Shown here: positions 11,201-55,544 of the stretch, one piece after another
Layout: each line of letters begins with the position of its first letter
Numbering within the stretch: position 1 is the stretch's first letter
Origin: an uncultured Acidobacteriota bacterium
GTDB lineage: Bacteria > Acidobacteriota > Thermoanaerobaculia > Multivoradales > UBA5704
DNA: 64,000 bases
Direction: 5' to 3'
Assembly: GCA_963770895.1 (NCBI GenBank)
Contig: CAVYRF010000002.1
Location: forward strand, 992,001 to 1,056,000
Made by a program: the position numbers and the translations under genes
Notes under the pieces: generated by a model
Databases searched by the model: none
Told to the model about the DNA's origin: nothing
What the model saw: only the letters and a program-made list of their open reading frames with translations

Positions 11201-11811
11201 CCGGCGCCAAGCCCGGCAGCCGCGTCCTGACCCACATCGAGCAGCTGGTGGCTGACCGGACAAGCGAGCGGGAGGATGGCAACGCTGCCGTCCTGCTGGC
11301 CACACGGAGGGAGGCTCTGACGCCGCTGCTGCCGGAGGTGCCTTGGTTTCTGGCGGGCGCGGAGGAGCGGCGGGCGCGGGCGGAGTTGCAAGCGGTCGAG
11401 CAGCTCGAGCTGCGCCGGCGCGCCATCGCGGCGGAACGGGCGGGGGCTTGGAGCCGCGCCAGCCGGTGCTGGCGGCGGGCGGGCGACCTGCGGCGGGCTG
11501 ACGGCGCGCGCGACCGGCGGATCGCCGGACTTGCCGATCCGCTGCGCCAGGTGCGGGCCTGGTGGCTGACGGGCGACCCTGCCAGCCGCCGGCGTGCCGC
11601 GGCGTTGGCCGCCGGCGCCGCGGCGCGCGGGCCGCTGCTGACTGTCGCCGTCGCGGCGCTGGCTGCTGAAGGTGAGGGCCGCTGGCAGACGGCCGCGGAG
11701 CTGTGGGCGCGGATCGCGCGGCGCGGCGACGTGATGCGCTGCATGGCCCGGGTGGCCGCATTCCGTGACGAGGCGCTGCCGCCGGCCCACGGCGGCAGGA
11801 GGCGGTCCTGA
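8248..11811 (+). CDS. UvrD/Rep (SF1) helicase with putative N-terminal RelE/ParE-like domain and C-terminal TPR-like solenoid
   Basis: GSAGSGKT, DEVQD, AGDAQQ, TVAQAKGLEFD, LYVAATRAR; N-terminal VYEAR..GDRMLF..IWDLVEHDDV; repeated W..AA..(W/Y/F) helices. Confidence 0.82.
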   Translation: MFAVLVHPALYQRLRRGSPALRSRVHKTLLRLRDGRWGGGTRVKRLRGASHAVYEARTDGGDRMLFTMARLAAGGGDPAGGDALHLQIWDLVEHDDVDRAARRTRSPEAGFLALAALEEFEISEPPPYPDAPFSAWSGAGDQDPLLRFLLPDADPAAAAGPAGDSAADARLAAAAGGSGTGAAPRNVRWFQLDAAWLAGEAQFQQLLDRAGDQLELKLDAEQLRILRAPGPLLLAGSAGSGKTTLAVHRLAAAALAPGDGRALYVSCSPALVERARRLYDDLTALRGGDAAALRDGDAAARRPDFFTFDDLYATVVGRDFERHRSRLMSEAAFEEWFRRAGRPLDPALVWQEVRSILKGACLAPGKSAMLDRDQYFELGRKRAPLFVDLRPQIYRIAERYQQWLAEEDRLDSIDLCRLALGELRRRRGGPYDVVICDEVQDLTELEVGFVIALSARTDLAGVMLAGDAQQVLNPSGFRWAEVRRLAARHARQQAPPAVLHLRDPARSTAPLCAFASALSTLRRDVFGRGDGEQGEDELPATAPGPFPVQIFGDEAAVVASIVAVATPGANDAGHERGLDRGNPAHCGYDADDAGGCAVLVADAVTAQALRERLPGCAVLTVAQAKGLEFDTVVMWRLLAADADLVERHLRGEARGEREARFARLLRWLYVAATRARRCLAVYEGQAPHPFWGRAPLAAALDPLPAQHLPRVFRAAADPEEWERQGDFFAAQDLPRQAAECYRRAGLVERETATLAQADEARQDWAAALARWQALGGTAPAREAPLLARLGRFAAAAERYRAAGQRAAALRCDLLLLESRGAWTDAARGWEDLGDDTRAARCWAAAGQRRAATAATLRTAEAAGDWPTAAAGWLDLGEHDRAARAFTAAADPRGAAHAAALAHREAGRWPAAAAAFRLCGRRQDAHHCLAQAFEAAGRPRQAARHWLHLGDPASHRRAVDRLVEAGAWLDVARLEPAAPPPATESAGAKPGSRVLTHIEQLVADRTSEREDGNAAVLLATRREALTPLLPEVPWFLAGAEERRARAELQAVEQLELRRRAIAAERAGAWSRASRCWRRAGDLRRADGARDRRIAGLADPLRQVRAWWLTGDPASRRRAAALAAGAAARGPLLTVAVAALAAEGEGRWQTAAELWARIARRGDVMRCMARVAAFRDEALPPAHGGRRRS

Positions 11812-13511
11812 CCGCGCCCGCACAGCACCCCGATCCAGCGGCCGTTCGCCGCCTGATCCTGGGCACCGCATCGCCGGTCGAGGCGCGGCAGGTCGTTCGC
11901 CACCTGCTGACCGGCTGCGGCCACTGCAATCGCTTCGCGCACGCCGCCGGCGCCGGCCCGACGGGCGGTGACGACGCCGCGGCGGCGTCTGATTCCGCAT
12001 CCACCGCCGCCCGCGATGCCGCCAACGCCCGCGCCCGAGGCTCGGCTCCCTCCCCGGCCCGCTCTCCCTCCCCGTCCGATTCCGCCGGCGATCCGCGGGA
12101 CGCCTCCAAGTACGACCAGGTGTTTGAGCGCATGAAGGAGCGCCTGCGCTCCGCGCCGCTCGGCGACTCGCCGGCCCATGACGCCGATGAGGACGCGCCG
12201 GAGGCGCCCGCGGCAGCCGGCGATGGGCGACCAGGCGCAGAAGCGGCACTGCCCTCGCCGGGTGCCGCGCCGTCGGGCACCCTCGCCATCTCCACCGCCC
12301 CCATCATCCGGCCCGGCCGCCCGGCGCCGGGCGCCGCGGACCTGGCGCGGCAGACGCTAGCCGCCGGCGGCGCCGCCGGGGCGGGAGCCGGCGCCGGCGC
12401 CCACGAGCTGTACGCCGAGCTTTTGGGGCACGACGCGGTGCAGGCCCTGACGCAGGTGCAAAGCACCCGGCGCTACGCCTATCTGGCGCTGTGCGAGCTC
12501 CTGCTGCGCAAGAGCTTCGGCCTGGAAAACGGCACGACGGCGGCGGCGGGCGTGGGCGACGCGGCGGCGATGGCGGCGCGCTGCGTCGTGGCGGCGGCCG
12601 AGGTCGCGGAGCTGCTCGACCTGGAAGTCTACGGCGCGCCGGTCGTCCAGGACGTGCGCGCCATCGCCTGGACCTATTTCACCGGCGGCGAGAGCATGCA
12701 GGAGGACATGCGCACCGCCGAGGTTTCGCGGCGCCTCGCCGCGCGGCTGCTCGCCGGCAGCGCCGACCGCGCACCCGGACGGCCGTCGCTGCTCGCGGCG
12801 CAGGCGGCGCTCGCCGGACATTGCGGACATTTTGGCGAGTCGCTGCGCCTGCTCACCGGCGCGGCCGGGTGCTATCGCCGCACCGATCAGGCTCACCTGG
12901 CTGCCCGCTTCCTGCTCAAGAAGGGCATGGCGCTGGGCAACGCCGGCGAAACCCAGGCCGCCGTCCGCCTGCTGTGGCGCGGCCTCGACACCATCGAGCC
13001 GGCGCGCGAGCCGCGGCTGCTGGTGTGGGCGACCCACAACCTCGCGTGGTTCCTGCACGAAGCCGGGCGCACCGGGCAGGCCGCCTCGTGCATCGAAGCC
13101 GCCCGCAAGCTCTATCGCGCGGCGCGCGACCGCCGCGAAATGTCGCGCTTGCGCTGGCTGGAAGGCAAGCTCGCGGCCGACTTCGGCACCGCCGAAACCG
13201 CCCTCGCCGAGGCCCGCGACGGCCTGGCGCGCGAGGGCCTGGCCTACGAGGCGGCGCTGGCCGCGATGGATCTCGCCGTGCGCTATGCCGGCGAGCGGCA
13301 GGCGGCGCGGATGCGCCAGCAGGCCGACGGCATGCTGGCGCTGTTCCGGTCGGATAGCATGTACGGGGAAACGGTCTTCGCCATGCGCTCCTTCCGCGAG
13401 CACGGCGGCGGCGACGACCCCAGCGACCTGTTGCGCGACCTGACCGCCTACCTCGACCAGGCCCGCCGGCCGCAAAACCCCAAGGCCCTGGCAGCCAGCA
13501 TTCCGCCCTGA
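11808..13511 (+). CDS. Zinc-finger (ZAS-like H-x24-H-x4-C-x2-C) + TPR-like protein; probable CTG start (track start is 12120)
   Basis: Frame open from 11769; AGGAGG at 11797-11802 then CTG at 11808 overlapping the helicase TGA; VVRHLLTGCGHC; REPRL and RLRWLEGK shared with the paralog at 50227. Confidence 0.72.
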   Translation: MTAPAQHPDPAAVRRLILGTASPVEARQVVRHLLTGCGHCNRFAHAAGAGPTGGDDAAAASDSASTAARDAANARARGSAPSPARSPSPSDSAGDPRDASKYDQVFERMKERLRSAPLGDSPAHDADEDAPEAPAAAGDGRPGAEAALPSPGAAPSGTLAISTAPIIRPGRPAPGAADLARQTLAAGGAAGAGAGAGAHELYAELLGHDAVQALTQVQSTRRYAYLALCELLLRKSFGLENGTTAAAGVGDAAAMAARCVVAAAEVAELLDLEVYGAPVVQDVRAIAWTYFTGGESMQEDMRTAEVSRRLAARLLAGSADRAPGRPSLLAAQAALAGHCGHFGESLRLLTGAAGCYRRTDQAHLAARFLLKKGMALGNAGETQAAVRLLWRGLDTIEPAREPRLLVWATHNLAWFLHEAGRTGQAASCIEAARKLYRAARDRREMSRLRWLEGKLAADFGTAETALAEARDGLAREGLAYEAALAAMDLAVRYAGERQAARMRQQADGMLALFRSDSMYGETVFAMRSFREHGGGDDPSDLLRDLTAYLDQARRPQNPKALAASIPP

Positions 13512-45292: not shown

Positions 45293-47878
45293 TCAGCCGG
45301 CGCCCGGCCCGGCGTCCGGCGCCGCGGCGCCGCGGTCGCTCCGGCCGGCGCTCCAGCTGAGAAAAGCGGGCACCAGGGTGACGGCGACGAGCGAGGTGAA
45401 CAGGGCGCCCAGCACCGCCACCTTGCCGGTCGATTGCAGGCCGGGGTAGTGGGAAAAGATGATCGAGCCGAAGCCGACGATGGTGCACAGGGCGGCCGCG
45501 GCAACCGCCTTGCCGGTCTCGCGCAGGCTCTGGTCGTGGACCGGCCGCGGCGCCCCGCGCAGCTCGCGGTGGCGATGCACGACGTAGATGCCGTAGTCGG
45601 TGCCGATGCCGATGATCATGGTGGTGACGAAGATGTTGATGAAGTTGAGCTTCAGCCCCAGCACCACCATGCCCGCGACCATCCAGACCATGCCCACCAG
45701 CAGCGGCGCCAGCGCCAGCAGCGTCGAGCCCAGGCTGCGAAAGGCGATGGCCAGGACGATCGCCACCAGCACCAGGCCGATGACGCCCGCGATCCAGGCG
45801 TCGTGCACCACGATCTCGCGGATCTTCTGGTTGACGACGTTGATGCCCGCCAGCTCCGCCTGGGGACCCAGCCCGGCGGCGAGCTGCGCCACGCCCGGCG
45901 GCACTTCCCGCCGCCAGCGAGGATCGGGCGGCGGGTAGAGGTACACGGCGGCGCGGTACCCCCAAGGCTTCTTCTTGAGATACCGATCGAGCAGCAGCTG
46001 CGTCTGCGGCAGGCGCGCAAAATCCGCCACCCCCAGGGGGTGGACCAGCGACAGCGCCTGCTGCAGAAGGTCGAGCCCCGGCGCGAAGGGCTCGGGACGC
46101 AGACCCTCGCGCCGCATCGCCGCATCGAACTGCCGCCGCACGCGATCCATGTCCAGGGCCTGCGGGCGCTGCCGCGCCAGCCACGCCAGCACCTGCTCCT
46201 GGCGGCTGCGCGGCGGGATCAGCGCCGAAGGAGCGCTCACCCCCAGGAGCACGCCGCGCGCCACCAGGTCGTGCGCCGCGGTTTCGGCGCGCTCCGACAG
46301 CTCCAGGGTCTCGTCGACGGTGCGTCCGGACAGCGACAGCAGCATCGAGTCGAAACCCGAGCCGAAGTGCTTGCCCACCTCGGCGCTCACCCGGCTGCCG
46401 CTGTTGATGGTCGGGCGCATGCTGGCCATGCTTTCGTCGAACGTCACCCGGCTGGCCACCCCGACCGCCGCCAGGGTCGCCAACGCCCCCAACGCCATCG
46501 CCGCGCGCGGCCGCCGCATGCACAGGGCGGTCAGCCGCCGCGTGCCCATGCCCTGCAGGAAAAGCCTGGGCGCGGTGCGCCGGCGCTCGGCGTGGTCGTG
46601 GCCCCACGCCAGCATCGCCGGCAGCAGCAGCAGCACCGCGACCATGCAGAACAGGATGCCGGTGCCGGTCAGCAGGCCCATCTGGCGCAGGCCGGTGAAT
46701 TCGGTGAAGGTGAAGGCGTAGAAGGTGGCGGCGGTGGTCGTGGCCCCGGCGATCACCGCGCCGCCGGTCGCGCCGCACATGGTGGCCAGCGCCTCCTCCA
46801 CGTCCTGGCCGCGCTGGCGTTCCTCGACGAAGCGCCCGTAGGACACGATGACGAAGTCGATCCCCAGGCCGATGAGCAGCGCCGCGCAGATGCTGGTCGC
46901 CGACGACAGCGACCCGAACGCCACCGCGGCGAAGCCGAAGGTGAGGGCCAGGCCGGTCAGCAGCGGCACGAAGGCGTAGATCAGCGCGCCGGCGCGCCGG
47001 AAGGCGAACAGGAACAGCGCCAGCACCGCCAGCGCCGACGTCGCCATGTTGACGAACATGTCGTGCCGGATGAGCGACGCATCCGAAAGGGTCGTCAGGT
47101 ACGGGCCGCCGATCTCGACCACCGGCCGCGCCGGGCCGTCCGGCCCGGCAAACGTCTCCCAGCGCGAGAGCGAATCGTCGACGATGCGCTGGGCGCCCGC
47201 GGTCAGGCGCTCGTCGAACGGGATGCTCTGCGGCGAGCGGCGCGGCTCCGCCAGCAGCAGCAGCAGGCGGTGGTCGCGCGACAGGTAGTAGCCGCTCGCC
47301 CAATCCACCTGCAGCGTGCCGCGGGAACCGTTGATGTGCTCCAGGAAGATGTCGGACAGGCCCAGCGGATCCAGCTTGACCAGCTCCTTGATCGACAGCG
47401 CCTGCGGCGTGGTCAGCTGGCGGCGCAGCTCGCCGGCGCGGCGGCTGATCCCCGCCTCGCTCAGCCGCGCCTCCAGCTGGCGCTCGCCGGCGGCATCCAG
47501 GAACAGCACCGACTTGGGGAAGAAGGCGGCCAGCAGCTCCTCGGGGTTGCCCAGCCTGGACTGCACCGACTTGATCTCGGGGAGCTTGGCGAGGTGCGCC
47601 GCCAGGTCGTCCGCCAGCGACTCGTAGGGTTCCGGCACCGCGCCAGGGGGCAGCCGCACTACCACCATCAGGTAGGTGTTGCTGCCGAAGTCCTGCAGCA
47701 TGTCGATGTACGAGTGGATCGCCGGGTCGCGGCGCGGCAGCAGGTTGAGCACGTCGGTGTCGAACGACAGCCGCGAAATCGCCACGCCCGAGGCCGCGAC
47801 CAACACTGCGAACACCGCGAAGATGGCGCGGTACCGCCGGCGCGCCAACCGCGCCAGCCCGGCGAGGAACCGGTTCAC
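45293..47878 (-). CDS. MMPL/RND family exporter
   Basis: Two TM repeats with GLGIDF and GIGTDY, TIVGFGS. Confidence 0.88.
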   Translation of the reverse strand: MNRFLAGLARLARRRYRAIFAVFAVLVAASGVAISRLSFDTDVLNLLPRRDPAIHSYIDMLQDFGSNTYLMVVVRLPPGAVPEPYESLADDLAAHLAKLPEIKSVQSRLGNPEELLAAFFPKSVLFLDAAGERQLEARLSEAGISRRAGELRRQLTTPQALSIKELVKLDPLGLSDIFLEHINGSRGTLQVDWASGYYLSRDHRLLLLLAEPRRSPQSIPFDERLTAGAQRIVDDSLSRWETFAGPDGPARPVVEIGGPYLTTLSDASLIRHDMFVNMATSALAVLALFLFAFRRAGALIYAFVPLLTGLALTFGFAAVAFGSLSSATSICAALLIGLGIDFVIVSYGRFVEERQRGQDVEEALATMCGATGGAVIAGATTTAATFYAFTFTEFTGLRQMGLLTGTGILFCMVAVLLLLPAMLAWGHDHAERRRTAPRLFLQGMGTRRLTALCMRRPRAAMALGALATLAAVGVASRVTFDESMASMRPTINSGSRVSAEVGKHFGSGFDSMLLSLSGRTVDETLELSERAETAAHDLVARGVLLGVSAPSALIPPRSRQEQVLAWLARQRPQALDMDRVRRQFDAAMRREGLRPEPFAPGLDLLQQALSLVHPLGVADFARLPQTQLLLDRYLKKKPWGYRAAVYLYPPPDPRWRREVPPGVAQLAAGLGPQAELAGINVVNQKIREIVVHDAWIAGVIGLVLVAIVLAIAFRSLGSTLLALAPLLVGMVWMVAGMVVLGLKLNFINIFVTTMIIGIGTDYGIYVVHRHRELRGAPRPVHDQSLRETGKAVAAAALCTIVGFGSIIFSHYPGLQSTGKVAVLGALFTSLVAVTLVPAFLSWSAGRSDRGAAAPDAGPGAG

Positions 47879-48471
47879 TGCGCCGCGCCCCGCGTCGAGG
47901 GCGGCTCACCGCCGGCCATCGGCGCCGGGCTGGACGCGGCAACCAGGTAGCGGCGGAAGCGCACAAAGTACTCCACGCCGGAGTAGACCGAGATCGCGAC
48001 CGCCGCCCACAGCGAGACCAGCGACACGTGTCGCAGTTCGCCCGGCAGCTGGTTGTGGATGATCAAGGTCGAGACGGCAACGATCTGCACCACGGTCTTG
48101 ACCTTGCCCAGGAAACCGGCCGGGATCACCATGTTTTCAGCCGCGGCAAAGCTGCGCAGGGCGCTGACCGCAAACTCACGCGCCACGATCACCACCACCA
48201 TCCAGGCCGCCGCCAGCCCCATCTCGACCAGCGAGATGAACGCCGCCGAGATCAGGATCTTGTCGGCGGCCGGATCGAGCAAGGTGCCCAGACGCGTCAC
48301 CTGGCTCCGTCGCCGCGCCAGGTAGCCGTCAAAGAAATCCATCAGCGCCGCGAGCAGGAACAGGCCCAGCCCCCACCACTCCTTGTCCTCGAACTGGGTC
48401 AGCAGCACCACCACCAACGGCGGCACCAGCAGGATCCGGCAGATCGAAAGCAGGTTGGGGAGATTGAGCAT
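47875..48471 (-). CDS. pgsA: CDP-diacylglycerol--glycerol-3-phosphate 3-phosphatidyltransferase
   Basis: NLPNLLS..R, DFFDGYLARR..G..LDPAADK, REF. Confidence 0.92.
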   Translation of the reverse strand: MLNLPNLLSICRILLVPPLVVVLLTQFEDKEWWGLGLFLLAALMDFFDGYLARRRSQVTRLGTLLDPAADKILISAAFISLVEMGLAAAWMVVVIVAREFAVSALRSFAAAENMVIPAGFLGKVKTVVQIVAVSTLIIHNQLPGELRHVSLVSLWAAVAISVYSGVEYFVRFRRYLVAASSPAPMAGGEPPSTRGAAQ

Positions 48472-48639: not shown

Positions 48640-49416
48640 CTAGTGGCTGCTGGGGGTGCTGGACAGCGCGGTCGTCACCACCAGGCGGCCGCTGCTGCCG
48701 CGGGTGACGTAGGGGGCCGGCCGCAGGCCGGCGCGGGGTGCCGACGTGGCGGCGGCCGCCGCCACCCGCGCCGGCAGCATCACCGCGGCGCCCTGGTACA
48801 GGGACATCACCCGCTGCACGTAGTCGATCGTGTCGGGGAAGGGCGGGACGCCGCCGTGCCGCTCGACCGCGCCCGGCCCGGCGTTGTAGGCCGCCAGGGC
48901 CATTTCGACGCTGCCGTGGAAGGCGTCGATCATCTGGCGCAGGTAGGTGATGCCGCCGCGCAGGTTCTCTTCGACGTCGAACGGATGCCGCACCGCCAGC
49001 TCGGCCGCGGTTTCGGGCATCAGCTGCATCAGCCCCATGGCGCCCTTGTTGGAGCGCGCCCGGTGGTTGTACCCCGATTCGACCTGGATCACCGCCCGCA
49101 CCAGCCGCGGGTCCAGCCCATGCTCACCGCTGTGACGCACGATCAGCGGTTCCAGCGCCCCCACCGGCAGCCCCGGCACGTCGGGCACCGGCAGCAGCTC
49201 GCCGGCAAAGCGGCGGGCATGCTGCACCGAGCTCTCGTTGAAGATCACCTTGCGCCCCGCGGCATCGACGCTCAACTGCACGGGATGCGCCTTGGGAGCG
49301 GTTTGAAAGGGGTGCACCTGCGAAAAACCGACCTGGATCTGGAACGCCCCCGCCGACGTCACCGACAGCCAGGCCAGCGCTCCTCCCAAGCAGACAACCG
49401 TCCTTGCAGCCTTCAC
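48640..49416 (-). CDS. Lytic transglycosylase (SLT domain), secreted
   Basis: VIQVES, GAMGLMQLMP, ALAAYNAG; GGAGG SD then GTG at 49416. Confidence 0.9.
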   Translation of the reverse strand: MKAARTVVCLGGALAWLSVTSAGAFQIQVGFSQVHPFQTAPKAHPVQLSVDAAGRKVIFNESSVQHARRFAGELLPVPDVPGLPVGALEPLIVRHSGEHGLDPRLVRAVIQVESGYNHRARSNKGAMGLMQLMPETAAELAVRHPFDVEENLRGGITYLRQMIDAFHGSVEMALAAYNAGPGAVERHGGVPPFPDTIDYVQRVMSLYQGAAVMLPARVAAAAATSAPRAGLRPAPYVTRGSSGRLVVTTALSSTPSSH

Positions 49417-49809
49417 GTCATTCCTCCACCGACAATTGGGAGCGCGATCATAGCCGCCGCAAACCCCAATGACAAGCGGGCAACGGGTAGTGGGGTGCGC
49501 CTCTTGCTGGCCCAGGGATAGGGGTATCCACCGCTGTGGTCGCCGACCCGCCACTGCCTGCCGAGGTAGCGGGCGCCGATCGAAGTCACGAAGTCACGCA
49601 TGCCGACGAGAAGACAGCGGTGCCTGCACAGGCAGAAGCACAAAAGTGCCCCGGTCTCCTCGCACTGGCAACACCCTCTTAGCATGAGCTGCCGTTTCGT
49701 CGGAACGGAACATCCACGACCAGGCCAACGGAACCCAGGTCTGTGGATACGGAACCCGTGGCACGCACCGCGGCGGTCGCGCGATCCAACGGGGTCCCTG
49801 GAGAAGGGT

Positions 49810-50094
49810 ATGCGTCTTCGAAGTGTCGCTCTCGTAGCTCTCGCCTTGTTCCTGCTTGGCCTCCCTGTTTCAGGTTCGGCTATGGACATCCTGCACGGCA
49901 TGCGTGCGGGAGTCGAGGTGGCGTCCTTGCCCAACTCGTGGTGGACCCGATTCGAGCGGGTTTTGCGAGGGATCCTGCCAACCGGGACGCCCGATCGCCA
50001 CGTTGACAGCCGCTCAGCCGGTGGCGGCACACACGGCGGAAGTGTCCACAGCCAGGGCAACATCGGCATGGACCCGAACGGTGGCGGCGGCTAG
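49810..50094 (+). CDS. Small secreted protein (94 aa) ending GNIGMDPNGGGG; candidate signalling propeptide
   Basis: GGAGAAGGG upstream of the ATG; signal peptide MRLRSVALVALALFLLGLPVSGSA; followed by a terminator. Confidence 0.65.
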   Translation: MRLRSVALVALALFLLGLPVSGSAMDILHGMRAGVEVASLPNSWWTRFERVLRGILPTGTPDRHVDSRSAGGGTHGGSVHSQGNIGMDPNGGGG

Positions 50095-50122
50095 GGAAAA
50101 CCAGCTCGCAGTGTTCGTTTTT

Positions 50123-50153
50123 GGGGCGCCGGCACTTGCCGGCGCTTTGTTTT
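50123..50153 (+). terminator. Rho-independent terminator
   Basis: GCGCCGGC-actt-GCCGGCGC followed by TTTGTTTT. Confidence 0.75.
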
Positions 50154-50226
50154 GCAGTTGCACACAGGGTGCGCATTCGCTAGAGTTCACGACACTGAAA
50201 TACGTTACCGTGGGAGGGAATGCCGG

Positions 50227-51645
50227 ATGCCCAAAGAACGCGATGCGCAGCGGAAAGGCGCGTCCGGCGATGATCCCGCCGGCGTGCACTTCTCGGCAAA
50301 AGAGTTCGCGGACCTGGTTGCCAATCGGCTGCCGGGCCGGCGGCGGCATCAGCTTGTCCGCCACATGGTGCGCGGTTGCGTGGCGTGCTCGAAGATCTCG
50401 GCGCGCGTCCTGGCGTCCACCAGGAAGGAGGGGGTGCCGCAGCTCCCCCTGGGGATCAACCAGGCAGAGTTCGATCTCGTGTTCACCAATGCCACCAGCG
50501 CCACCGAGCTGCGGGACCGACAGCTTGCCTGGGAGCGCCTCCAGGCCTGGGTGCTCTGGTGCGAGCTGGAGCCCCTGCCGCCCGCAGAGAGGCAACACCG
50601 CGTACGCCACTACAAGGAGTTTCACACCTGGGGCATGTACGAGCGGTTGCTGGAGGCAAGCGTCTGGCACCGCCACAACGATCCGGCGGAAGCGGTCGAC
50701 ATCGTGAAGCTGGCGGTGCTCGTCGCTGAGAACATGCCCAGCTCTCACATCCCGGGGCGAGCCGGTGGCCGCACCCGGCTGCTGGCGCGCGCCTGGACCC
50801 ATCTCGCCAACGCGATGCGGGTGGCGGCGGATTTCGACGACGCGCGCAGAGCCCTCAACCAGGCGTGGGGATTTTGGGAGGACGCGCACGACCCCGAAAC
50901 GGAGGCCAGGATCTACAGTGTCGAAGCCAGCTATCACAGCGACCGCGGCGACTTCGCCATGGCCGAGATCGTCGGCCAGCAGGCGCTCGATATCTATACG
51001 GCGCTGGGCGCCGAGTATCGGCACGAGCAGGGGCAGACGCTGCTGACGATGGGGGTCAATCTCATCGACGCCAATCCCCGCAAGGGCATGTTGTTCTTGC
51101 GGCGCAGCCTGGGCCTGGTGGACCTGAACCGCGAGCCGCGGTTGCACCTCTACGGCAAGCACAGCATCGCGGCCTGTCTTGCAGCGCTGCGGCAGGGCGA
51201 AGCCGCGCTTGCAGCCTTGGAGGAAGTCCGGCCGCTCTACCGGCAGTACGATGACGACGCCTTCATTCAGCTGCGCTTGCACTGGCTTGAAGGCCGAGTC
51301 GTTCGATGCCTCGGCAAGCCCGTCGAGGCGGCGCAAGTCTTCGCGCAGGTGGCGGAGCAGTTCAGGGCGCTCGACATGCGTCATGAAACGGTGTTGGCGG
51401 CGCTCGACCAAGCGGAGGCGCTGGCCGCGCAAGGCGACTTCGACGCCGCGCAAAGGGCTCTCGAAGAGGTCACACCTCTGATGACCGCCTGGCGGCTGAA
51501 CACCTACCTGGTGGCGGCGTGGCTCCTCCTGATCAACGCCCTCAAAACCCACCAGACGGTCGATCTCTTTCCCCGCCTGCAGCTCTACTTCAGCCTCCGC
51601 TGGAAAGCGCCTGTGGAGTTCGTCGCAAATCCCGAGCCGTCGTGA
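50227..51645 (+). CDS. Zinc-finger (ZAS-like H-x24-H-x4-C-x2-C) + TPR-like protein, paralog of 11808-13511
   Basis: GGGAGG SD then ATG at 50227; VRHMVRGCVAC; REPRL; RLHWLEGR; helical repeats. Confidence 0.75.
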   Translation: MPKERDAQRKGASGDDPAGVHFSAKEFADLVANRLPGRRRHQLVRHMVRGCVACSKISARVLASTRKEGVPQLPLGINQAEFDLVFTNATSATELRDRQLAWERLQAWVLWCELEPLPPAERQHRVRHYKEFHTWGMYERLLEASVWHRHNDPAEAVDIVKLAVLVAENMPSSHIPGRAGGRTRLLARAWTHLANAMRVAADFDDARRALNQAWGFWEDAHDPETEARIYSVEASYHSDRGDFAMAEIVGQQALDIYTALGAEYRHEQGQTLLTMGVNLIDANPRKGMLFLRRSLGLVDLNREPRLHLYGKHSIAACLAALRQGEAALAALEEVRPLYRQYDDDAFIQLRLHWLEGRVVRCLGKPVEAAQVFAQVAEQFRALDMRHETVLAALDQAEALAAQGDFDAAQRALEEVTPLMTAWRLNTYLVAAWLLLINALKTHQTVDLFPRLQLYFSLRWKAPVEFVANPEPS

Positions 51646-51718
51646 GAAGAATCGACGGCATGGCGCCCAGCGGCGGCACGGGATGATCCAGCAAGGGATC
51701 TGAAGCTCCAAGCCCGTT

Positions 51719-51847
51719 TTACGGCGGGCCGCACTTGATCGCGACGGAGCAGATGGGCGGGTTCGAATTGTTGCCGCCTTGCACGGTGCTGAGAAGACTG
51801 GTGAGGGTCTCCCTGTGGATCACGAGCTTCGCTGCATTCTTTTTCAT
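51719..51847 (-). CDS. RiPP/lanthipeptide-like precursor, 42 aa (MKKNAAKLVIHRETLTSLLSTVQGG-NNSNPPICSVAIKCGPP)
   Basis: Hand translation; AGGAGG SD 4 nt before the ATG; TAA at 51719-51721; RETL leader, double-Gly, core with 2 Cys and 2 Ser. Confidence 0.8.
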   Translation of the reverse strand: MKKNAAKLVIHRETLTSLLSTVQGGNNSNPPICSVAIKCGPP

Positions 51848-52069
51848 GTCGCCTCCTGGCGGTTGGCGGGCGCCGGCGCAACCGCCGAACGCGCGCCCTA
51901 TCTCATGTTCTACTTATAGACTGTGCGCAATCTTCGAAAAATGAGACGCGGGGGGCACTGCAAGCCAACTCCGCCGCCCAACCGCCAGGCCGGCGCTTCG
52001 GACGGCCGCGGCGGTCCCTGCGTCGCCGGCGGACTGGTGCCGCCGGCACAATCCGCGGCTGCCGCCGTT

Positions 52070-52650: not shown

Positions 52651-54162
52651 TTAGCGCGGGGCGGTGGCGCCGGCTGCCGGAGAGTCGGAACCCGGCAGAG
52701 CGGCGGCGGTGGACGCGGCGCCCTGGGCCAGGTCGCCCGCCAGACGGCGCAACAGCTGCCACAGGTCGTCCAGGTGGTCCCGTGAGGTGCGCAGGTTGCC
52801 GATCGCCACGCGCAGAGTGTACCTGCCGTCGAGGACGGTGTGCGACAGAAACCAGGGGCCGGCGGCGTTGACCGCGGCCATCAGCCGCTCGTTCAGGCGG
52901 TCCTGGTCCGCGGGCGCCACGCCCTCGCCGGCGCGGGCGCGGAAACAGACGACGCTCAGGGGGACGGGAGCCGCCAGCTCGAAGGCGGGGTCGGCTTCGA
53001 TCCGGGCGGCCAGCTCGCGCGCCATGGCGCAGTGATCGCGCAGGCGCTCCCGCAGCCCATCGACGCCGAACGCGCTGATCACCATCCACAGCTTCAAGGC
53101 GCGAAAGCGGCGTCCCAGCTGAAAGCCCAGGTCCATCAGGTTGGTCGCCTGGTCGCCGTCGGTGCGCAGGTATTCGGGCACCAGCGAAAAGGCGTCGCGC
53201 AGGTTGGCCGGATCGCGGACCAGCAGGATCGAGCAGTCGACCGGCGTGAACAACCACTTGTGCGGGTTGATCACGATCGAATCGGCGCGCTCCAGGCCGG
53301 GCATCTGCGTCCGCAGCTCGGGACAGATCGCCGCCGCGCCCGCATACGAGGCGTCGGCGTGCAGCCACAGGCCGTGGGCGGCGCAAATGTCGGCGATCCG
53401 CGGCAGCGGATCGATGCTGGTGCTGGAGGTGGTGCCGATCGTCGCCACCACGGCCAAGGGGCGCCGTCCCGCCGCAAGGTCGGCGGCGATGGCCGCTGCC
53501 AGGGCATCGGGAACCATGCGGAACGCCGCGTCGCTCGCCACCCGGCGCATCTGGTCCTGTCCCAGCCCCAGGACGATGGCGGCCTTGTCCACCGACGAAT
53601 GAGCCTGGTCGCTGGCGTAGAGGGTGAGCGGCGCCACCTCGGGCCGCCCGGCCAGACCGCGGGTGCGCGCGTCCAGGCCGGGCAGGCGGTGGCGCGCCGC
53701 CGCCAGGGCGACCAGCGTGCTGGTCGAGGCGGTGTCGTTGATGTGGCCGCGGAACTCCTGCGGCAGGCCGATCATCTGGCGAAACCAGTCGCAGACCCGC
53801 TCTTCCAGCTCCGTCGCCGCCGGTGACGTGCGCCACAGCATGGCGTTGACGTTGAGCCCCGCCGCCAGCGCTTCGCCGACGATACCGGGAGCCGAGCCGG
53901 TGATGGCGAAGTAGGCGAGAAAACCGGGATGGTTCCAGTGCGTGACGTTGGGCTCGATCCACCGCTGGTAGTCGTCGATCAGGTCGTCCAGCGATCGCGG
54001 ACCATCCGGCGGCGCCACCGGCAGGTGGGCAGCCACCTCGCCGGGCTTGACCCCGGGCAGCACCGGCCGCTCGCCGACGCCTTCCAGGTAGTCGGCCACC
54101 ACGTCGGCAACGCGGTGCATCGCGGCGCGGAATTCAGGGATGGGGGTGTCCTGGCTCGACAT
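52651..54162 (-). CDS. Group II PLP decarboxylase (aromatic-L-amino-acid decarboxylase-like)
   Basis: [41 protein letters not shown]. Confidence 0.9.
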
Positions 54163-54259
54163 TCGGCGCCCCGGTCACAGAGTTGTTGGCGTGAGCAGCT
54201 GAGGCGGCCCGCCGGCATCTGCACCGCGCGGACCGCCCCTGGATGGATTGGACGATCGG

Positions 54260-55354
54260 CTAGCTGACGTTCTTGCGCTTCAGCTCGTCGTCGATGATCT
54301 TGGACAGCTCGTCCGAGGAGACCGCGCCCGAGATGAAACGGCCGTTGACGAACATCGCCGGCGTGCCGTTGACGCCCGCCTTGCTGCCGGCCTTCATGTC
54401 GACCTGCACCTGCGGCTGGTCCTTGCCCGAATCCAGGCAGCTGTTGAAAGCGGTGGCGTTGATGCCGGGAATCGCCGCGGCCTTGGTCTTCAGGTTGTCG
54501 ACGGCCAGGGCGGTCTGGTCCTTGAACATGGCGTCGTGCATCTCCCAGAACTTGCCCTGGTCGTTGGCGCACAGCGCGGCTTCGGCGGCCTTGGCGGCAT
54601 TCTGGTGCATGGGCAGGGGGAACTGGCGGAAGACCAGGCGCACCTTGCTGCCGTACTTGGTGACCACTTCCTGCAGCGTCGGGGTGACGCGGCCGCAGAA
54701 CGGGCACTGGAAATCGGAGAATTCAACGATGGTGACCGGGGCGTCTGCCGGGCCGCCCTTGGCGGGGAAGCCGGCGGCGGCCACCTGCACGCGCATCGGC
54801 TCCAGCATGTAGTCGACCTTGTACTTGGCCTCCAGCGTTTCGTAGAACTTGTCGCGCGCCTGCTGCTGGCCCTGCGCCTGCAGGTACTGCTTGATCTGCG
54901 GGATCAGCTGCTCCTTGGGGCGCGGCGGCATCTGCGCCTTGTTCTTCTCGTAGAAGGCTTCGGCATCCGCGTCGGACACTTCGGCGGGCTTGATATCGGC
55001 AAGCAGCTTGTCGCTCGAGACGCCGCGCGCCGCCGCTTCGGCGTCCAGCAGCCGCGCCTGCACCATCTTCTTGAGCTCCTGCTCGGTGATGTCGTGCTTG
55101 CGCTGCTGGTATTCGTGATCCAGCTGGTCGTACTGGTCGGAGGCCGCGGCGTTCAAGTCTGCCGCCGTGATCACCTTGCCGTTGACCCGCGCCAGCACCT
55201 GCGACGAGCTGTCCTGCGCGGATTTGCCGGTGCCGGCGTCGTTCTTGGCCTGCGCCGAGCAGGCGGGCAGGCAGCAGCCGACGCCGAGCGCCAGCGCCAG
55301 CACGCCCTTGACCACCTGGCGAGAGGCGGTCTTTGTACGATGGGATGCATCCAT
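54260..55354 (-). CDS. DsbA-like thioredoxin-fold protein with SurA-like N-terminal domain
   Basis: EFSDFQCPFC, RQFPL..H, GVNGTPAMFVNG; AAGGAG SD before the ATG at 55354. Confidence 0.88.
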   Translation of the reverse strand: MDASHRTKTASRQVVKGVLALALGVGCCLPACSAQAKNDAGTGKSAQDSSSQVLARVNGKVITAADLNAAASDQYDQLDHEYQQRKHDITEQELKKMVQARLLDAEAAARGVSSDKLLADIKPAEVSDADAEAFYEKNKAQMPPRPKEQLIPQIKQYLQAQGQQQARDKFYETLEAKYKVDYMLEPMRVQVAAAGFPAKGGPADAPVTIVEFSDFQCPFCGRVTPTLQEVVTKYGSKVRLVFRQFPLPMHQNAAKAAEAALCANDQGKFWEMHDAMFKDQTALAVDNLKTKAAAIPGINATAFNSCLDSGKDQPQVQVDMKAGSKAGVNGTPAMFVNGRFISGAVSSDELSKIIDDELKRKNVS

Positions 55355-55544
55355 GGTCTGTAACTCCTTTGTACTGTAAACAGGATCAACGATTTGCAAG
55401 GCAAATCCCGAGAGCGCGGCCTGGTATTTTAGCACACGGCAAGCGGCTCACCGCCAGCGAGCGACCAGCCAGCGGGATCAAACGACCCCTCGATCGGGTC
55501 TACGAACGCGGCAGCCGCGCCGTCTATGCGCCGCCTATGCGCCG

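Follow-up and report, generated by a model that had tools for sequence, protein, structure and literature searches.

A conserved secreted-peptide and zinc-TPR gene pair of Thermoanaerobaculia as a candidate peptide-signalling system with an anti-sigma-like output

Introduction

What joins a small secreted protein to the soluble tetratricopeptide repeat (TPR) protein that is encoded directly behind it? The question is raised by a locus in a 64,000-nucleotide stretch of DNA (the window), positions 992001-1056000 of contig 2 (C2) of an uncultured member of the Thermoanaerobaculia, Acidobacteriota, whose own genome measures 8.16 Mb at 71% GC (0.707). Three open reading frames (ORFs) sit there between an SLT transglycosylase gene and a gene for a PduO-type cobalamin adenosyltransferase, and a first-pass annotation had read them, from the letters alone, as one peptide-signalling module of the RRNPP kind, composed of a secreted propeptide, a TPR protein with an anti-sigma-like zinc domain and a convergent precursor resembling those of ribosomally synthesized and post-translationally modified peptides (RiPPs). 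The first two of these genes are a conserved two-gene cassette of Thermoanaerobaculia, the C-terminal DPNG unit is the conserved, repeated part of the propeptide family, and structure prediction places this end of the propeptide in the groove of the TPR domain. Of the explanations considered, a peptide paired with a TPR receptor whose output is anti-sigma-like has the most support, and for the whole mechanism we hold the balance of belief to be even. The features of the locus are as follows.

49810-50094, + strand: propeptide gene, 94 aa (ATG at 49810, stop at 50092-50094, GGAG 6-9 nt upstream of the ATG)
50044-50091, + strand: propeptide residues 79-94 (VHSQGNIGMDPNGGGG), the predicted receptor-binding end, which holds the candidate mature peptide
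50123-50156, + strand: terminator-like GC hairpin and U-tract between the propeptide and TPR genes, found by folding
50227-51645, + strand: gene of a soluble protein of 472 aa, zinc domain plus TPRs (GGGAGGG, 7 nt ahead of the ATG; TPR_12 match; paralogs)
50281-50436, + strand: N-terminal three-helix zinc-type domain, residues ~19-70 (H21, H46, C51, C54), anti-sigma-like by weak matches
50509-51606, + strand: TPR superhelix, residues ~95-460, predicted peptide-binding sensor domain by fold matches and complex prediction
51719-51847, - strand: 42-aa ORF of a double-Gly-leader, Cys-containing peptide (AGGAGG before the ATG; 74 nt past the TPR gene)

All three ORFs of the first-pass annotation are thus present, with slightly corrected coordinates. 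The 94-aa Sec-signal protein with its distinctive C-terminus is confirmed as an ORF with a Shine-Dalgarno site, and the 472-aa protein, described as carrying H21, H46, C51 and C54 followed by TPR-like helices, is as described, with a predicted soluble model.

A conserved two-gene cassette

An alignment of 20 homologs of the 472-aa protein (A1) was used to retrieve 52 related loci, together 446 kb, from public Thermoanaerobaculia genomes. In what follows, C1 and C2 coordinates refer to contigs of the window's own genome and L-numbers to related loci in other or own Thermoanaerobaculia DNA. By a first criterion, an upstream propeptide on the same strand was present in 44/52 loci; these ORFs are 86-106 aa long (one has 69 aa) and have a signal peptide as well as between one and three DP[NDS]G units, with the final unit close to the stop or directly before it. 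A relaxed criterion added L015, L020 and L033, which brings the count to 47/52, and the remaining five comprise two loci without upstream DNA (L037, L040) and three partial matches (L035, L062, L063). Clustering of all likely ORFs across the 52 loci gave no other recurrent neighbour. The same pairing is evident within the window's own genome. Of its 14 ORFs with a hydrophobic N-region and DP[ND]G at the end, 13 have a TPR paralog no more than 1.5 kb away (ORFs placed at random in 2000 trials gave a mean of 0.32 and a maximum of 3), and a DP[ND]G signal-peptide ORF is found near 19 of 46 TPR paralogs. The linkage between such small ORFs and homologs of the zinc-TPR protein, which the annotation had put forward as a check, is borne out.

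The propeptide opens with a Sec-type signal peptide, residues 1-24 (MRLRSVALVALALFLLGLPVSGSA), followed by an amphipathic segment SWWTRFERVLRGILP, a Gly/Ser-rich linker and one C-terminal unit QGNIGMDPNGGGG; its last residues are GNIGMDPNGGGG, i.e. ending NIGMDPNGGGG. Of 41 propeptides, 39 passed a crude Sec heuristic (not SignalP) that asks for a positively charged n-region, 9 or more hydrophobic residues and a small-x-small site. Across the family the unit follows the consensus [DKE][GS]R[GSA][TGS][MI]DP[ND]G and occurs one to three times per propeptide, and the six residues before DP are more alike within a propeptide (63% identity, 47 pairs) than between propeptides (39%, 3034 pairs). The conserved Arg at position -4 of the unit suggests a possible cleavage site. 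The unit of the window propeptide is single and divergent, and the sole close database relative of this propeptide (P0180, 90% identical) differs from it only outside the last 16 residues.

As to the terminator that the annotation gave the 94-aa gene, folding revealed a GC-rich hairpin of 11 bp at 50123-50148, followed by UUUGUUUU, within the gap of 132 nt that separates the two genes, but a consensus terminator scan did not call the hairpin behind the propeptide gene, and the entire 74-nt stretch that holds it is not unusually stable (z -1.37).

The 472-aa protein carries the zinc-type motif H21-x24-H46-x4-C51-x2-C54. In Pfam it matches TPR_12 at 1e-13 and has no zf-HC2 match, and its AlphaFold2 model is an all-helical soluble superhelix with a mean predicted local distance difference test (pLDDT) value of 85. 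Assignment to the NCBIfam family NsdA was rejected as sub-threshold (24.8 bits vs 75). The protein has 48 matches in its own genome, and among 1.84 billion proteins a profile picks out 1,879 cluster representatives (E<=1e-30); the named relatives among the matches listed (29) carry the label 'tetratricopeptide repeat protein' only. The relatives found stem from Thermoanaerobaculia, and the close subfamily occurs in 5/301 genomes of the phylum (its own genome and four of the same family or order), a sample in which five candidates per genome were scored and which is no proof of absence elsewhere. A metagenome scan with P0002, the 59%-identical ortholog, gave no relative, and the sole return of the scan with P0180 (L065) was discarded as spurious, being an antisense frame of an adenylation-domain gene from an unrelated organism.

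The N-termini of the paralogs are of two kinds, a zinc-type H..H....C..C arrangement (19 ORFs) and an XRE helix-turn-helix (20 ORFs). In a maximum-likelihood tree of 36 TPR domains all XRE-type rows lie on one side of a branch with 100/100 support, so that a single domain exchange suffices to account for them. The partner ORFs differ accordingly, since zinc-type paralogs pair with linear ..MDPNG ends whereas XRE-type pairs flank Cys-bracketed repeats (C..DPNG..C).

Three further members of the family were encountered. Window 11769-13511 (+) holds a second zinc-type TPR paralog whose H..H....C..C motif lies in open frame upstream of the first ATG/GTG/TTG (12120); AGGAGG stands 5 nt before an in-frame CTG at 11808, which makes a CTG start likely, and the paralog is without a DPxG partner ORF and without a Pfam match. 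A close paralog at C1:659208-660668 (L004), with 37% identity to the window protein, has an in-frame TAG and no propeptide ORF and is probably a decaying copy. At C2:1060220-1062243, 4 kb past the window end, a TPR paralog stands beside a signal-peptide ORF with a Cys-bracketed CAFNKDPNGLC loop.

Predicted binding of the propeptide end

The TPR domain resembles peptide-binding TPR proteins in fold. With VIA-align it matched LGN/Pins (Z 21-23), RapJ (20.8), NprR (20.4), the Rap protein of phage phi3T (20.3-20.4) and KLC (19), and the titles of the fold matches listed name a bound peptide, degron or partner, save for an apo NprR entry. A profile search of PDB sequences with the whole protein returned generic TPR matches only and no RRNPP chain.

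The annotation had proposed that the C-terminal end of the propeptide be modelled together with the TPR protein. Complex prediction with TPR residues 95-472 (A1) and the mature propeptide (A3), accompanied by three controls, placed the DPNG end in the TPR groove with a score of 0.67 (runs 0.67, 0.65 and 0.71), the best of the controls reaching 0.08. The mark applied to this score is reached by 116/157 solved complexes and by 2/215 mismatched pairs. The runs share at least 52% of their contacts, with a pLDDT of 42-47 for the partner. The confident interface on the propeptide comprises residues 79-94 only, and the tightest predicted contacts are made by N84-P89 with receptor residues 277-390. 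Invariant residues N195, R198, H312, R350, W353, L354, E387 and L390 are among those of the receptor interface.

The zinc domain and ECF sigma factors

Zinc-binding anti-sigma (ZAS) factors bear the motif (C/H)-x23-26-H-x3-C-x2-C. The four putative zinc ligands of the cassette protein are invariant in 36 sequences; in A1 H46, C51 and C54 are invariant and H21 is conserved in at least 90%. A profile of the domain run against the whole PDB matched ChrR (2q1z/2z2s) only, at E 0.33, and the ChrR ligands H6, H31, C35 and C38 align with H21, H46, C51 and C54 across a one-residue gap. The model of the domain has a pLDDT of 86; its top Foldseek matches are RslA (E 1.3) and ChrR, in a range of E 1.3-4, and among 48,161 chains VIA-align ranked RsiW first (Z 5.4, root-mean-square deviation 2.6 A over 51 residues), with MucA at Z 5.3 and unrelated rows at about Z 5. 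A protein atlas yielded zf-HC2 clusters at 0.85, which are leads only. In keeping with the annotation, the zinc domain comes closest to those of anti-sigma factors, which make up all of its best, though weak, matches, but the H-x4-C spacing departs from the ZAS motif and zf-HC2 stays sub-threshold. With sub-threshold zf-HC2 and weak anti-sigma matches, the domain is here called ZAS-like and not a member of the family.

A gene for an extracytoplasmic function (ECF) sigma factor lies within 1.5 kb of 3/19 zinc-type paralogs (random expectation 0.42, P 0.01) vs 0/20 of the XRE type. The zinc-type paralogs concerned are C2:3000642, C2:5716538 and C1:576641, and the linked sigma factors (C2:2999690, C2:5718841, C2:5720392, C2:5721106 and C1:578343) are mutual best BLAST hits and therefore form one clade. 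The sigma factors directly beside cassettes in L058, L060 and L061 match this linked clade of the own genome, whereas the non-adjacent ones of L019 and L021, several kb off, do not. The nearest own-genome relative of L060 is C2:3000642, with the same layout of divergent sigma, propeptide and TPR genes, and C2:3000642 belongs to the window protein's own five-member clade.

Two orphan sigma genes of the TPR-linked clade, C1:797943-798548 and C2:1250023-1250598, have no zinc-type TPR neighbour. Zinc-TPR proteins that lack a sigma gene nearby, the window copy included, may have their partners in trans in these two. With them the clade numbers seven, the other genes lying at C2:2999411-2999938, C2:5718604-5721294 (three genes) and C1:578343. 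A block at C2:5716538-5721294 holds three paralogous ECF sigma genes together with the genes of a zinc-type TPR protein of 671 aa and of a DPNG propeptide (..GISMDPNGGG). L019:9979-11022 holds an ECF sigma gene followed by that of a canonical H-x3-C-x2-C anti-sigma factor, 3.7 kb from a cassette, which sets off the x4 spacing found in the TPR family.

Discussion

What the computations give directly is the gene pairing, the conserved motifs, the folds, a predicted binding that was compared with controls, and the link of the paralogs to one sigma clade. We infer that the propeptide passes beyond the inner membrane, that it is processed and taken up again, that a sigma factor is bound, and in which sense regulation works. 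In the mechanism proposed, the propeptide would be exported by Sec, its functional part being the C-terminal unit (N)IGMDPNG, and would then be trimmed to a short DPNG peptide that re-enters the cytoplasm. There the TPR superhelix would bind the DPNG unit in its inner groove, and occupancy of the groove may alter how the zinc domain holds an ECF sigma factor of one particular clade. For the window copy this sigma factor would be encoded elsewhere, and the N-terminal H/H/C/C would represent a divergent domain of the anti-sigma type. The two SBP_bac_5 (OppA/DppA-type) genes of the own genome make peptide import at least possible.

The RRNPP-like module of the first-pass annotation thereby survives in reduced form. 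The pair is conserved, the five features of the RRNPP signature set out below are present and binding in the groove is predicted, but the 42-aa ORF falls outside the module, no sigma gene is adjacent and the zinc motif has x4 spacing. In its general form, the reading is that DPNG peptides are signals read inside the cells of Thermoanaerobaculia by a modular TPR sensor wired either to an XRE domain or to a soluble zinc anti-sigma domain that gates the release of an ECF sigma factor; this we hold tentatively, with doubt having somewhat the upper hand.

Several observations weigh against a signalling role of this kind. With regard to binding, the eukaryotic LGN slightly outscores the RRNPP receptors in the TPR fold match, the low pLDDT of the partner leaves its own fold uncertain, and the interface residues show no significant preference for conserved columns (17/44 vs 117/378, P 0.16; range of P 0.14-0.16). 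The passing complex score itself may stem from likeness to solved TPR-peptide complexes. The core [MI]DP[ND]G is near-identical in many paralogous cassettes of one genome, a pattern that a shared motif for processing or structure would explain as well as a specific signal would. The host is presumably a diderm, as judged from its phylum, so that the outer membrane would be crossed twice, and the cassette has no recurrent importer, protease or exporter beside it in the 52 loci. As to the output, none of the zinc-domain matches is significant (E 0.33; E 1.3; Z 5.4 amid unrelated rows at Z 5), zf-HC2 (PF13490) is weak in 10/36 relatives (best E 0.0044) with no match for the window protein, and the spacing is H-x4-C-x2-C, not H-x3-C-x2-C, in the window protein and most relatives. 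A directly adjacent sigma gene is found in only 3/52 related loci, and there is none within ~40 kb of the window copy, so that the window protein, if an anti-sigma factor, acts in trans.

Some of these points would suit a plain relation of regulator and target, in which the zinc/TPR protein responds to some other cytoplasmic cue. The exported protein would then be no more than co-expressed with it or under its control, and might for instance serve in the periplasm or at the surface, its DPNG turn having an extracellular role of its own. The near-invariance of the DPNG core over paralogous cassettes is odd for a specific signal, the propeptide gene has a terminator-like hairpin of its own, no import system is linked, and in the XRE-type cassettes the motif sits in loops bracketed by Cys, like those of a folded extracellular module. 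Nevertheless, the small ORF accompanies the TPR sensor domain with either output domain, zinc-type or XRE, its units are repeated and homogenised within the propeptide, and it is exactly the DPNG end that complex prediction puts in the TPR groove (0.67 vs 0.08). We consider such a relation rather unlikely, although it deserves serious attention.

Recognition before export would dispense with re-import, which suits a diderm. The TPR protein would then bind the C-terminal DPNG tail of the unexported precursor, either as a chaperone specific to it or to gauge the load on export, and the pair would report on secretion and not on a signal that comes back into the cell. TPR clamps that read C-terminal tails are known, in most propeptides the motif stands at the free C-terminus or no more than two or three residues away from it, and the predicted complex was obtained with the unprocessed mature chain, of which only the C-terminal 16 residues bind. 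This account is improbable in view of the internal repeated units behind a conserved [GS]R, which suggest cleavage into several peptides and would be needless for a tail-reading chaperone, and no secretion machinery is linked to the cassette.

The peptide and TPR-receptor pair has its closest counterparts in the RRNPP(A) systems (Rap-Phr, NprR-NprX, PlcR-PapR and AimR-AimP). As given in a survey of such systems, their computational signature has five points, namely a propeptide of 10-100 aa, Sec export, a receptor of 250-500 aa, TPRs and directly adjacent genes (PMC10075063). The cassette shows all five, with 94 aa for the propeptide (69-106 in relatives), Sec export by the crude heuristic, 472 aa with TPR_12 for the receptor and the 132-nt gap (PMC10075063). 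The survey covers complete Firmicutes genomes and viruses only, and cytoplasmic TPR receptors for secreted peptides are described there for Bacillota and their mobile elements (PMC10075063). Also alike are the alignment of the cassette TPR fold to RapJ, NprR and phage Rap at Z 20-21 and the predicted position of the peptide in the groove. As in Rap, the N-terminal domain outside the TPRs would act on a protein partner and not on DNA, and as in NprR and PlcR, sister paralogs of the cassette protein carry an XRE helix-turn-helix. On the other side, the cassette protein has no sequence match to any RRNPP(A) receptor in the PDB search and scores slightly higher with LGN by fold, its host is presumed to be a diderm acidobacterium, the gene for the propeptide is the upstream one of the pair, many paralogs have the DP[ND]G core in common and the output domain is zinc/anti-sigma-like. 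Tandemly duplicated pheromone propeptides, as described for RRNPPA systems, are reminiscent of the cassette relatives with two or three near-identical units per precursor, whereas the window propeptide has a single unit (PMC11343458).

Likeness to LGN/Pins, the best structural match of the TPR domain (Z 21-23 over ~300 residues), extends to a ligand that runs along the inner groove; however, this is a eukaryotic polarity protein, and with 14-17% identity the resemblance is one of repeat geometry only. With the ZAS proteins ChrR, RslA, RsiW and RsrA the cassette domain shares a first His followed after 24 residues by an H..C..C cluster at the junction of a helix-turn-helix, three short helices that match RsiW residues 4-54, and paralogs and relatives beside ECF sigma genes. 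It differs from them in the H-x4-C spacing, in falling below the zf-HC2 threshold, in its fusion to a large cytoplasmic TPR sensor and in having no adjacent sigma gene. TPRs coupled to ECF sigma control with no membrane anti-sigma factor are also found in ECF42-type sigma factors, whose C-terminal extension, as the ECF reclassification describes it, is made of TPRs fused to the sigma factor itself (PMC7826278). Those of the cassette belong to a distinct protein that has a zinc domain and forms a pair with a secreted peptide. The same work notes that soluble anti-sigma factors unlike the known ones are probably missed (PMC7826278).

Literature searches found no report of RRNPP systems in Acidobacteria, no description of a soluble zinc/TPR or peptide-gated anti-sigma factor like this one, and none of the cassette under RRNPP in Gram-negatives; searches for Thermoanaerobaculia quorum sensing and for the motif strings gave no description of the system among the matches listed. 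If the peptide and receptor reading is true, the range of peptide signalling would extend to an abundant, mostly uncultured soil phylum, a large family of 1,879 cluster representatives would gain a function, and ECF sigma factors would be controlled in a new way. A diderm phylum would then have peptide quorum sensing like that of Gram-positive bacteria, coupled to a new output.

The convergent 42-aa reading frame

The third ORF had been taken as part of the module. It exists and has the AGGAGG noted above, but it does not belong to the pair, since a GG-leader peptide was found within ~5 kb in 2/52 related loci, which is roughly the density of the own genome with its 29 such peptides in 8.16 Mb, the window's ORF among them. 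The NF038153 lanthipeptide leader model gives the ORF 13.6 bits against a cut-off of 22, and 13/21 scanned paralogs match the same model at E<=1, one of them above the cut-off. The 42-aa ORF is one of the divergent members of a scattered peptide family whose leaders resemble those of class I lanthipeptides. None of the 14 LanC and 9 C39 matches of the own genome lies near it, and folding of the stretch between the TPR gene and this ORF showed no notable structure.

RiPP-related features (GG-leader, LanC or C39) lie within 3 kb of a TPR paralog in 5/51 cases vs 1.8 expected (P 0.03), a weak enrichment that falls short of significance at both 1 kb and 5 kb (P 0.09 each). That the peptide-sensing zinc/TPR protein controls production of the convergent RiPP-like precursor in a three-part module, as its position 74 nt past the TPR gene, its strong Shine-Dalgarno site and the enrichment at 3 kb might suggest, is very improbable given the near-background frequency of GG-leaders at the related loci, the lack of a LanC or C39 gene near the window copy and the loss of significance at the other two distances.

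Besides the window ORF, four places in the own genome bring RiPP features and TPR paralogs together, C1:512349-518613, C1:574391-578482, C2:3846459-3848989 and C2:4267557-4269693. Overall the genome holds at least 29 Cys-rich leader peptides of the 'KLxLxRETLxxL...GG' type, 14 LanC-like matches and 9 C39 peptidase matches, for example at C1:1579906-1581279 and C2:4304002-4308793, and these make up a large, mostly scattered repertoire of the lanthipeptide type.

Setting of the cassette

The patch between slt and pduO that had looked less GC-rich by eye is real though modest. Computed along the window, GC is 0.62-0.69 over 49200-52000 and 0.70-0.76 in the flanks, beside the genome value given above. 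The flanks (window 45293-48441 and 52651-55435) hold ordinary genes, among them those of an MMPL transporter, a CDP-alcohol phosphatidyltransferase, a pyridoxal phosphate (PLP)-dependent decarboxylase and a DsbA-like thioredoxin with a SurA_N domain. These are mutually unrelated, which fits the cassette as an insertion.

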